Shown: positions 4,029-9,779 of the stretch, piece after piece
Layout of the letters: each line of letters begins with the position of its first letter
How positions within the stretch are numbered: the stretch's first letter is position 1
IMG/VR virus record: IMGVR_UViG_3300034196_000017
Location: 1-13,421 of that record
DNA length: 13,421 nucleotides
Source: a virus
Taxonomy: Duplodnaviria; Heunggongvirae; Uroviricota; Caudoviricetes
Strand: one strand, 5' to 3'
Notes under the pieces: model-generated
Seen by the model: the letters and a program-made list of their open reading frames with translations, nothing else
What the model was told of the DNA's origin: nothing
Databases searched by the model: none
Position numbers and translations under genes: made by a program

Positions 4029-4463
4029 TCAAACTACTAAACCATCTACCATCATAACCGTAGGCTTGAACTCCTCAGCACGTATTGCAATACGCTGATC
4101 AAATGCAGGTACATCACCCTCAGCAAATGGATCAAACCACAAAGTAGAAAACCGAATACGGAAAGAACTTCCAGTGTTAGACACAATCTTCGTATTGTAA
4201 ATCAACAAACTAGAAGGGTCTAGAACCAATACCTCAATGAAAGAAGGATTCAACCTCGGCTCAACATACGTGTAATCCAAATACCCAACACCCGGTGGAC
4301 TATCATTATCCTGAACAACATGCACCTCAATCATCAACGCACTACTACCCCCAGTACCACCACCATAAGGCAATTCATGGAAATAACCCAACTTAGCAGC
4401 TACAGCAGGACCAACATTCTGAATAGCCTCATACAACTGATCACGTGTAACACTCATTATCAT
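4029..4463 (-). CDS. isolated hypothetical protein (142-144 aa) with a Gly-rich linker and a beta-rich C-terminal part
   Basis: GGGGGT precedes ATG ATA ATG; it has its own terminator 4 nt downstream. Confidence 0.8.
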   Translation of the reverse strand: MIMSVTRDQLYEAIQNVGPAVAAKLGYFHELPYGGGTGGSSALMIEVHVVQDNDSPPGVGYLDYTYVEPRLNPSFIEVLVLDPSSLLIYNTKIVSNTGSSFRIRFSTLWFDPFAEGDVPAFDQRIAIRAEEFKPTVMMVDGLVV

Positions 4464-4464
4464 A

Positions 4465-4615
4465 CCCCCAAAACTTTATCAAACCAACATGGCCCAATTT
4501 CAAAGAAGTATAACAGCTTTACCCCAAAAACACAATACCCCCAAATTCCAATTCCCCCCTATTTTCAACTCCCCAAACTACAACTCTTCCCAAATCCCTA
4601 TCCCCAGAAATCCCC
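4465..4615 (-). repeat. G-tract array with a canonical G-quadruplex motif at 4589-4615
   Basis: Ten runs of 3-6 C on the + strand; the minus strand reads GGGG-ATTTCT-GGGG-ATA-GGG-ATTT-GGG. Confidence 0.7.
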
Positions 4616-4972
4616 AGATATTGGTCTGAAGTGTTTAACGCCCCGGCACCTGCCAGCCTACCGCCCGTCTAGGAATCTCAAAATCCCTGCGAGTTGGCAC
4701 CCTTCTTGCTTACCCAATCCATGGGCTAGGCACTTCCATGAGCATTGAATGCTTCTCATTCATCATGCATTTAACATAATACTGATTATACGAAGTGCGC
4801 ATCCCTTGCCCCATTGGTCACCAACAGGCTGATATAACTAGATATGTGGTATATGTGGTGGATAGGCTATATACATGCACGTTGCGTGCACTCTCCACCA
4901 TTAACACAATAATACACCCTTTCGGGCTGCATGTATAGCTTTTTCTGCTGATAATCAGCGAATATGCGCAAT

Positions 4973-4991
4973 GCAAATGATTATCACTAAC
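4973..4991. promoter_or_regulatory. Fur-box-like site
   Basis: The reverse complement GTTAGTGATAATCATTTGC matches GATAATGATAATCATTATC at 15/19. Confidence 0.5.
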
Positions 4992-5452
4992 TATTTCTCC
5001 CACTGCATGGCAGTGAAAAGGGATCGCTAGAGAGGGATGCTTAACCCTATCGCCGATAGTGTACGCATATCCCACAATAGGTAATTCTGAGAATAGTCAA
5101 TATTATGTCGTATTAACGACATATGCGTCTAATGCTTGTGGCTTAAAGCCACGGTCTACAAGGCTTTGAGAGGAACGCTATTTCTATGCTATGCATAGGG
5201 TAGGGTAGGTGCATTGCTATGCAATGAGTGAGCTTGTAGGAGCTTAGAGACGCCATTATGGGCTAGTGATAGGAGAGGGAACAGGGGTTATCACCCTGTT
5301 ATATAACCTGTTTAGTGAATAGCTATACTCTTATGTTATACATAAGAATAGTTAACTCTAAGACTATATCTCTCTAGTGGGAGTGTTTCCCACTCCTCTT
5401 CTCTTAATGCTCTCTAAACGCGCCCTCCCGTTAATACGGGAGAATCTAGAGC

Positions 5453-5491
5453 AGTATACTGGCAATCAGTCGATTTAGTCAAGACCTATTC
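5453..5491 (-). promoter_or_regulatory. sigma70 promoter pointing into the non-coding block
   Basis: GAATAGGTC-TTGACT(5482-5477)-18 nt-TATACT(5458-5453), with the same AATAG upstream element as most of the other promoters. Confidence 0.7.
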
Positions 5492-5540
5492 AGGTAATAG
5501 GTTGCTTCTGCTAACACTTTGTGGTAGGAGGGTGATTCCT

Positions 5541-5559
5541 GCTAATGATTCTCATTTGG
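5541..5559. promoter_or_regulatory. Fur-box-like site
   Basis: The reverse complement CCAAATGAGAATCATTAGC matches the Fur consensus at 14/19, with the AATGAGAATCATT core. Confidence 0.5.
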
Positions 5560-5580
5560 GTAGTGATTTATTGCTGACAT

Positions 5581-5604
5581 AAGAAAGCCCCCGTTAGGAG
5601 GCTT
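5581..5604 (-). terminator. intrinsic terminator at the end of the - strand early region
   Basis: On the minus strand, AAGCCTCC-TAAC-GGGGGCTT followed by TCTT. Confidence 0.8.
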
Positions 5605-5606
5605 CT

Positions 5607-5622
5607 TGTTCCACGTGGAACA
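5607..5622. other. parS: chromosomal-type parS site (ParB/Spo0J binding), perfect 16-bp palindrome
   Basis: TGTTCCACGTGGAACA, compared with the bacterial consensus TGTTNCACGTGAAACA; intergenic, between a stop codon and a terminator. Confidence 0.85.
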
Positions 5623-5623
5623 T

Positions 5624-5992
5624 TTAATAATCTGAATAATCCCAATCATCCATCATTTCACACATTTCCTCATGCCGTGCATGGTCGGCAATAAAACCTT
5701 TATCGGTTGCCCATTTATCCATCCATGCCTGAGCGTGTTTTAGTTTGAAGAATGTGCGACGTCCATTGTAAGAGTTTCCCGGTGACACACCCATATCACA
5801 AAGGCTTGACGTTCCCACATACTGACCTTGTGAATAAATCAAGATACATGGAACAAATAGACCAATATTACTTTCCATGTAGGGGCGGCCTGTAATGACA
5901 CGTTTGTCGATACCGTATACAGGGTGTGCAGTATAAACGGTTACACCGGCTTTCATGTCTTTGACACAGGCTTTCACGTTTGCCGTTTTCAT
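5624..5992 (-). CDS. hypothetical protein (122 aa)
   Basis: ATGA overlap with the upstream gene; followed by parS and a terminator. Confidence 0.85.
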   Translation of the reverse strand: MKTANVKACVKDMKAGVTVYTAHPVYGIDKRVITGRPYMESNIGLFVPCILIYSQGQYVGTSSLCDMGVSPGNSYNGRRTFFKLKHAQAWMDKWATDKGFIADHARHEEMCEMMDDWDYSDY

Positions 5993-7592: not shown

Positions 7593-7604
7593 CTCTTTAT
7601 GGTG

Positions 7605-7670
7605 AGAGGGGCTTTCCCCCTCTCTGTGACTACGATTGTACAGGGTTTAGAAAACGTTGCAAGTTTTATT
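7605..7670 (-). promoter_or_regulatory. early sigma70 promoter with a 5' leader hairpin
   Basis: TTGCAA(7662-7657)-16 nt-TACAAT(7640-7635), then GAGAGGGG-GAAAG-CCCCTCTC. Confidence 0.85.
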
Positions 7671-9709: not shown

Positions 9710-9779
9710 TGAAAGAGGCTTTTCCTCTTTCTTGACGCCTATTCTACACCTAAAGGATACAGAGTCAACAACTATTTTC
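9710..9779 (-). promoter_or_regulatory. early sigma70 promoter with a 5' leader hairpin
   Basis: AAATAGTTG-TTGACT(9768-9763)-16 nt-TAGAAT(9746-9741), then GAAAGAGG-AAAAG-CCTCTTTC. Confidence 0.85.

Follow-up and report, generated by a model that had tools for sequence, protein, structure and literature searches.

A conserved field of perfect mini-hairpins in the predicted genome-end region of a Pseudomonas myovirus lineage

The early promoters of the N4 virion RNA polymerase are DNA hairpins extruded from supercoiled DNA near the genome end, with a stem of 5–7 bp and a 3-nt loop; there are three of these promoters, which share sequence, and the polymerase is a giant virion protein. The injection-stop signal of T5 is a repeat- and palindrome-rich non-coding region of the left terminal repeat, in a phage with repeats of roughly 10 kb, a two-step DNA transfer and dedicated A1/A2 proteins. 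The direct terminal repeat (DTR) of PaP1 is reportedly 1190 bp long, and that of C11, a phage related to PaP1, is 1173 bp. The 160-bp repeat of T7 contains three mini-hairpins (stems of 5–7 bp) downstream of the promoter phiOR, the hairpins of the repeat including CCCCC-ATA-GGGGG and GTCAACC-TTC-GGTTGAC, and a published end-duplication model for T7 includes a hairpin-form intermediate (PMC4281155, the passage citing Chung and Hinkle 1990). Here we describe a field of small perfect hairpins at positions 4876–5502 of the tailed-phage record IMGVR_UViG_3300034196_000017. The stretch that was analysed, hereafter the window, has 13,421 nucleotides and covers the initial 13.4 kb of a phage genome of 99.4 kb that was assembled as a circle and has 16 tRNA genes. 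We conclude that the hairpin field is real, under strong selection and typical of the lineage, and that it lies in a region syntenic with the mapped genome ends of relatives.

Hairpins were defined as perfect inverted repeats with a stem of at least 5 bp and a loop of 3–8 nt. The field holds 15 of them, 13 distinct and two that are overlapping alternatives; 12 have stems of at least 6 bp (11 distinct) and six have stems of at least 7 bp. The corresponding values in 2000 dinucleotide-preserving shuffles were 0.87 ± 0.93 (maximum 5) and 0.23, and no shuffle equalled either observed count. No other such cluster exists in the genome: the field reaches 11 hairpins per 600 bp, the runner-up segment has 6, and most segments have 0 or 1. 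A preliminary description of this DNA had claimed a dense field of perfect hairpins at these positions and had proposed a comparison with shuffles; the density is indeed far above the shuffled background, and all hairpins named there are present (TGCACG-TTG, CACTGC-ATG, GTGGCT-TAA, CTATGC-TAT, CATTGC-TAT and TCTTATGT-TAT). Six field hairpins carry 3-nt loops on stems of 6–8 bp, which is the geometry of N4-type hairpins, and a survey of eight relatives shows an excess of triloops, with 34 among 77 hairpins. The loops of the field are mostly 3 nt long, AT-rich and unconserved, and are able to flip strand. Stems and loops differ from each other, and we found neither a sequence family linking the field hairpins, such as REP-like or CRISPR-like repeats, nor a motif common to their flanks. 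ARAGORN found no tRNA gene within the window, and an exact 41-nt scan of IMG/VR gave no match. The GC-rich stem followed by a U-tract that marks an intrinsic terminator was not seen, as no field hairpin is followed by a real T-tract; a terminator scan listed only 5376 and 5379 in the field, both with tails that are C/T mixtures.

The same region is present at about 72% identity in Pseudomonas phage phiPto-bp6g (bp6g), where it has 12 hairpins of its own, and conservation between the window and bp6g shows no reading-frame preference. Further homologues with 76–78% identity (L019, L020/L021 and L016) were obtained from metagenome assemblies via the neighbouring protein, by protein homology search and the contigs encoding the matches; scans of IMG/VR and of the metagenome collection seeded with the phrog_36221 protein, encoded beside the region, gave no match. 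A core set of ten helices with 66 pairs was defined on the window, and pairs were counted in Python. In bp6g, L019 and L020, a Watson–Crick pair was retained in 165 of 183 core cells, whereas the non-stem identity of these sequences (0.68–0.72) would lead to about 0.5 retained pairs by chance, and a control in which the 3' partner was slid by 1–3 columns gave 24–35% paired cells. Both sides had changed with pairing kept in 10 of the 66 core pairs. The core stems are thus under selection, and these compensatory changes in related phages, which the preliminary description had suggested looking for, indicate that structure rather than sequence is conserved, in line with its proposal of selection on structure. 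In a multiple alignment of otagoviruses (40–50% identity), the fraction of retained pairs was 0.41–0.54 against 0.30–0.33, a modest gain in a test limited by alignment noise; within this noisy alignment, hairpins occur at conserved positions with different stems.

The hairpins of the field and the predicted promoter that reads into it are, from the right-arm side downward:

5484–5502, hairpin ACCTATT-CAGGT-AATAGGT, upstream of the promoter and poorly conserved.
5453–5482, minus strand, sigma-70-type promoter of early type, TTGACT-18-TATACT, with 10/12 matches, reading leftward into the field.
5425–5442, core hairpin 1, 7 bp, about 10 nt past the -10 hexamer; 28/28 cells paired, 4/7 pairs covarying.
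5376–5396, core hairpin 2, with alternative registers of 7 bp and 6 bp; 25/28 cells paired, one covarying pair.
5329–5347, core hairpin 3, 8 bp, TAT loop; 28/28 cells paired, two covarying pairs.
5280–5300, core hairpin 4, 7 bp, 7-nt loop; 26/28 cells paired.
5212–5226, core hairpin 5, 6 bp, TAT loop; relatives have a different hairpin of 5–6 bp in its place.
5184–5198, core hairpin 6, 6 bp, TAT loop; 24/24 cells paired, 3/6 pairs covarying.
5138–5152, core hairpin 7, 6 bp; 24/24 cells paired, stem invariant and loop variable.
5104–5123, core hairpin 8, 8 bp; 30/32 cells paired, loops TAAT, AATA, AATA and TATT.
5047–5059, 5-bp hairpin; two covarying pairs between the window and L019.
5001–5015, core hairpin 9, 6 bp (7 bp in relatives); 26/28 cells paired, one covarying pair.
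4876–4890, core hairpin 10, 6 bp (7 bp in relatives); 33/35 cells paired.

Core hairpin 1 exists in three stem versions, CTCCCGT, CTGTGCT and CTGGGGT, each perfectly paired, and the stem of core hairpin 6 is CTATGC in the window and ATGGGC in the other homologues. In three cases, the loop of one relative is the exact reverse complement of the loop of another: TTG/CAA at 4876 (window and bp6g), AATA/TATT at 5104, and TAC/GTA (VCM and Psxphi15). These inverted loops on unchanged stems are at 4876–4890 and 5104–5123 of the window and at 1146–1164 of L008 against 3940–3954 of L007. They are the trace that template switching or inversion leaves at a small palindrome.

The genome ends of three relatives have been mapped. 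The respective papers give DTRs of 628 bp for vB_PseuGesM_254 (PhageTerm; PMC11512268), 526 bp for phiPsa374 (PhageTerm; PMC9796965; also annotated in its record) and 544 bp for UNO-G1W1 (nanopore DTR-phage-pipeline). We rebuilt the concatemer junctions of vB_PseuGesM_254 and phiPsa374 from the ends of their records, and in each, one DTR boundary falls between GTT and AAACACC. This boundary motif and an upstream ACGGGCGG element are kept in VCM, Psxphi15, ventosus, UNO-G1W1, the window and all its homologues. Two features of the window relate to these boundaries:

4631–4645, minus strand, predicted DTR boundary, GGGGCGTT followed directly by AAACAC, with the boundary between 4637 and 4636; conserved in 6/6 aligned sequences.
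4769–4792, 24-nt block identical in the window and bp6g, whose minus strand holds the 9-mer TTATGTTAA.

A repeat bounded at 4637/4636 would run toward higher coordinates. The second boundary motif of otagoviruses, TA with the boundary before AGCGAAGCGATC, has no clear counterpart in the window; candidates for the left boundary are 4772, 4903, 5042 and 5245, the last of which would give a repeat of 608 bp. The 9-mer TTATGTTAA ends on the left DTR boundary of vB_PseuGesM_254. With the boundary motif and these candidate left edges, the field would lie within the repeat, immediately beyond its edge, or in both places, on the side of the right arm.

Two side observations concern the repeat. Six copies of the pentamer GTTAA, the core of the DTR boundary motif, lie on the minus strand (TTAAC on the plus strand) within 720 bp, where about 0.85 would be expected; the copies at 4635, 4771, 4901 and 5041 lie 130–140 bp apart in blocks conserved in bp6g, and the others are at 5113 and 5352. 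The 127-bp 'direct terminal repeat' of the record (1–127 = 99289–99415) is the k-mer overlap of the circular assembly and does not represent the biological repeat, and the start of the record is arbitrary.

The field lies in a gene-free gap of 1.16 kb (4464–5623) between converging gene arms, with plus-strand genes up to about 4057 and minus-strand genes from 13419 down to 5624. Where the arms meet, this gap is flanked by a phrog_36221 gene, as it is in vB_PseuGesM_254, VCM, Psxphi15 and ventosus. Among deposited phages, that gene was found only in these four and in Boevelstad, in each case adjoining a gene-free gap of 1.0–1.3 kb between convergent arms; all its homologues that were found belong to this phage lineage. 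In vB_PseuGesM_254 and phiPsa374, the corresponding gap contains the short DTR. Since relatives have their mapped ends at the syntenic place, the field can reasonably be read as a terminase or end-processing signal.

Hairpins with stems of at least 6 bp were counted in the 1000 bp before the boundary motif of eight phages, with 500 shuffles each. There were 14 in this window, 12 in bp6g, 12 in VCM, 9 in Psxphi15, 8 in phiPsa374, 6 in ventosus, 5 in vB_PseuGesM_254 and 4 in UNO-G1W1; the expectation from shuffles was 1.0–1.4 in all eight, and the observed value was equalled in at most 11 of 500 shuffles for any phage. In phiPsa374, seven of the hairpins fall in the 400 bp that adjoin the annotated DTR on its outer side, and one lies inside; VCM has about seven outside its predicted repeat and five inside, and in vB_PseuGesM_254 most are inside the repeat. 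Boevelstad has the gap and almost no hairpins. The right end of PaP1 (Pakpunavirus) has 17 such hairpins in 1.6 kb, of the form xAGC-N3/4-GCTx, and the left end of its record has no hairpin field.

The other elements of the gap and its borders are:

5607–5622, perfect 16-bp palindrome TGTTCCACGTGGAACA, which bounds the gap and is unique in the genome.
5585–5606, minus strand, predicted intrinsic terminator that closes the block of right-arm genes, the last of which stops at 5624; stem and T-rich tail, conserved in bp6g and L020.
5540–5556, Fur-box-like motif, copy 1, AATGATTCTCATT; invariant in four homologues.
4972–4988, Fur-box-like motif, copy 2, AATGATTATCA.
4464–4620, minus strand, array of about nine G-tracts (units of the TTTGGGG and CTGGGGA types), some in tandem repeats of 10 and 17 nt.
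4507–4535, minus strand, predicted promoter TTGTGT-17-TATACT of gene 4463–4029, inside the G-tract array.
4029–4463, minus strand, phrog_36221 gene (E 9e-33), the inward-facing first gene beside the end region.

The palindrome TGTTCCACGTGGAACA is also present in bp6g, L020 and ventosus, and partly inside the phiPsa374 DTR, at differing positions within the gap; it is probably a protein-binding site. The Fur-box-like direct repeats (AATGATTATCA and AATGATTCTCA) are 568 bp apart, occur nowhere else in the 99-kb genome and are kept in all homologues. The G-tract array, partly conserved in all homologues, sits between the predicted DTR boundary and gene 4463–4029 and could represent iterons or have G-quadruplex potential. 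Both hexamers of the 4507–4535 promoter are retained in vB_PseuGesM_254 with a different spacer, and gene 4463–4029 has its own terminator (4024–3999).

Our interpretation, to which we assign a probability of roughly 50%, is that the field is a cis-acting DNA hairpin array of the concatemer-junction region, in a myovirus that would package unit genomes with short exact DTRs in the style of T7. Its most likely role is to help form or package the chromosome ends. We infer that a DTR of this phage lies at the field, that the hairpins act in DNA and that they serve a step of end processing. Read along the minus strand, the region would be arranged as the right-arm terminator, the 16-bp palindrome, the early-type promoter directed toward the end and about 12 mini-hairpins, followed by the boundary motif at 4637/4636, the G-tract array, and the promoter and first gene of the left arm. 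The region may be unwound behind RNA polymerase starting from the 5482 promoter, or by replication or terminase. Stable short stem-loops would then extrude from one or both strands and could be structure-specific signals for end formation, through terminase loading or cutting; alternatively, they might help to duplicate the terminal repeat, in the manner proposed for T7.

The composition of the stems favours action in DNA. None of the 66 core pairs is G-U, even when the search allows G-U and on either strand, whereas the strong intrinsic terminators of the same genome (n = 12) have 12 G-U in 97 pairs (12%), with at least one in 6/12. Wobble-type mismatches in the core of homologues are rare and strand-unbiased (5 G-T versus 8 A-C). 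Folded as a single strand, the DNA has a z-score of -6.4, compared with -5.2 for plus-strand RNA and -2.7 for promoter-sense RNA.

Several findings weigh against this interpretation. The ends of this phage are only predicted from the motif of its relatives, with four candidates for the left boundary, and hairpin density is uneven among relatives, from almost none in Boevelstad and only about five in vB_PseuGesM_254. All four homologues retain a promoter that is directed into the field; the field is therefore probably transcribed, and the hairpins would exist in RNA too. The 5' leader RNA hairpins of this phage are also perfectly Watson–Crick paired, which weakens the argument from missing G-U pairs. 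Since the core hairpins were found by a Watson–Crick-only search, there is an ascertainment bias that the G-U-tolerant search reduces and does not remove. In weak flanking helices, G-U is somewhat commoner on the promoter-sense strand (40 versus 24 cells, which are not independent), and stems of 6–8 bp are short for stable cruciforms. The preliminary description had proposed that selection acts on single-stranded DNA or cruciform structure. The absence of G-U pairs that it had noted, unlike terminators, holds, and synteny makes the terminase signal it listed a reasonable reading; the promoter into the field and the purely Watson–Crick leader RNA hairpins argue against a restriction to DNA. For the injection stop, primase site and nucleoid-protein binding that it also listed, no specific evidence was found.

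Among the alternatives, the one that survives best is that the field makes up the main part of an early non-coding RNA, or serves as a long structured leader into gene 4463–4029, transcribed from the 5482–5453 promoter, with hairpins that would stabilise the untranslated RNA, block Rho loading or bind protein. We consider this possible, if rather doubtful. The promoter hexamers are conserved in the four homologues (both are kept in bp6g, L019 and L020) with a variable spacer, and the first hairpin follows about 10 nt after the -10 hexamer, an architecture shared with the early promoters at about 7660 and 9765. These read TTGCAA-17-TACAAT and TTGACT-17-TAGAAT, and each has, within about 10 nt, a perfect 8-bp leader hairpin with a purine-rich loop (7604–7624 and 9711–9731, minus strand). 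An equivalent promoter, TTGACG-17-TACAAT, precedes the fields of VCM and Psxphi15; against this, the hairpin clusters of phiPsa374 and ventosus have no recognisable same-sense promoter. An RNA would also suit a helix CCC-GAAA/GCAA-GGG with a GNRA-type loop and sense-strand G-U in 4/5 sequences, as well as the G-U excess of the weak flanking helices; the fold is more stable than shuffles on both strands, yet it is the promoter-sense strand that folds least well. The complete lack of G-U pairs in the core and the unconserved loops, which can flip strand, speak against an RNA. Furthermore, Rfam gave no match at E ≤ 1 in the window, there is no terminator between the field and the next gene, and no long-range helix is conserved: the sole 10-nt long-range pairing (4870–4879 with 4928–4937) was ruled out, as it is lost in bp6g. 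The abundant non-coding RNAs of PAK_P3 were dropped as an analogue because they are located in the tRNA/terminase region and are not comparable.

We find it improbable that the field is a replication origin or priming region whose hairpins, in unwound DNA, would be entry signals for primosome or primase. The region is gene-free with hairpins and short repeats, a cumulative GC-skew maximum lies nearby at about 3.3 kb, and the T7 right end, which pairs the promoter phiOR with end-processing signals, also holds a secondary origin. However, the skew change coincides with the gene-strand switch, so that the maximum is not specific; the hairpins have no iteron family in common, no replication gene adjoins, and for vB_PseuGesM_254 an origin is predicted at 70.5 kb, by software only (PMC11512268). 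It is very improbable that the palindromes are duplex operators for dimeric DNA-binding proteins. The 16-bp palindrome and the two Fur-box-like motifs do resemble duplex protein sites, but the field stems differ from each other and change between relatives by paired substitutions that keep the arms complementary, where a sequence-specific protein would conserve the letters, and their centres are mostly 3–4 nt and not self-complementary. That the hairpins arose by chance, or neutrally through template-switch mutation in non-coding DNA, is strongly disfavoured: the loop inversions indicate that template switching does happen at these palindromes, but 0/2000 shuffles match the count, pairing persists in 90% of stem cells against a background identity of about 70%, 10 pairs are compensated, and the feature recurs in non-alignable relatives.

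Beyond this phage, we tentatively suggest, as a generalisation that may well prove too broad, that about a dozen sequence-independent DNA mini-hairpins constitute the recognition or working structure for the ends across the otagoviruses, the vB_PseuGesM_254-like phages, this clade and Pakpunavirus; they would extrude beside and inside the repeat, where the terminase or repeat-duplication machinery would read the structure. Full-text literature searches found no earlier description of such hairpins. The excerpted papers on vB_PseuGesM_254 (PMC11512268), phiPsa374 (PMC9796965) and UNO-G1W1 report the repeats and, in those excerpts, leave hairpins unmentioned; the genome papers on PaP1 state that its genome has no complicated secondary structures. 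End recognition, cutting and duplication in phages with short exact repeats are poorly understood except in T7 and T3. The field is a structural element that is compact, under strong constraint and easy to mutate, and it occupies this place in a large Pseudomonas phage group, several members of which are under study for biocontrol or therapy. Should the hairpins act in DNA, they would provide a rare natural example in which selection operates on extruded DNA secondary structure, and a handle for packaging-signal engineering and for end prediction from sequence only. If they act in RNA, the field would be a new multi-hairpin early phage RNA. In either case, annotators now call spurious small open reading frames (ORFs) in the region.

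Such small ORFs are annotated in the non-coding hairpin regions of L001 (JN175269) and L007 (PP203289); the records of Psxphi15 and phiPto-bp6g are examples, and one in bp6g (120 nt) is labelled 'major virion structural protein'. ORFs annotated inside the hairpin regions are very likely spurious. In the window itself, the plus-strand ORF 4320–4748, which overlaps the left of the gap, was rejected as a gene, as it has no family match and all six frames are equally conserved in comparison with bp6g. The IMG/VR locus L003, a relative of gene 5624–5992, has no hairpin field beside that gene. At about 4540, between the boundary motif and the phrog_36221 promoter, relatives bear different inserted genes (L016 440–1055, L019 2307–2923, L017 1681–2688 and L004 839–1843). 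The insert of L016 and L019 is a gene of 150–166 aa with its own terminator, and that of vB_PseuGesM_254 and L017 is a CapR/endonuclease-type gene. This point looks like a hotspot for mobile insertions beside the genome end.

Compared with the systems described above, the field shares with the T5 signal that it is a non-coding, palindrome-rich cis element in or beside a terminal repeat, but nothing here points to a two-step injection. With the N4 promoters it has in common stems of 5–7 bp and 3-nt loops near a genome end, which is a predicted one here; unlike them, it comprises about 12 hairpins that share no sequence and whose AT-rich loops vary, and the largest ORF of the genome, at 1263 aa, falls short of a giant virion RNA polymerase. 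Closer are PaP1 and the PAK_P1-like phages, in which small hairpins are likewise crowded in the right-end region and whose xAGC-N3/4-GCTx stem form is shared by otagoviruses. PaP1 differs in belonging to another genus, in its longer DTR and in having no alignable sequence, and the loops here are mainly TAT/ATA and not of the GNA type. Over 800 bp, the T7 right end has five hairpins with stems of at least 6 bp; the field has 12 over 627 bp. T7 resembles this lineage in its short exact DTRs, in a promoter directed toward the end and in mini-hairpins before and inside the repeat. It differs in having its own RNA polymerase and a defined pause site, whereas the phage described here is an unrelated myovirus with host-type promoters and has no sequence homology to T7. 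Searches of its own genome for the T7-type RNA polymerase (PF00940) and endonuclease VII families gave no match and carry no weight, as the controls were also silent.

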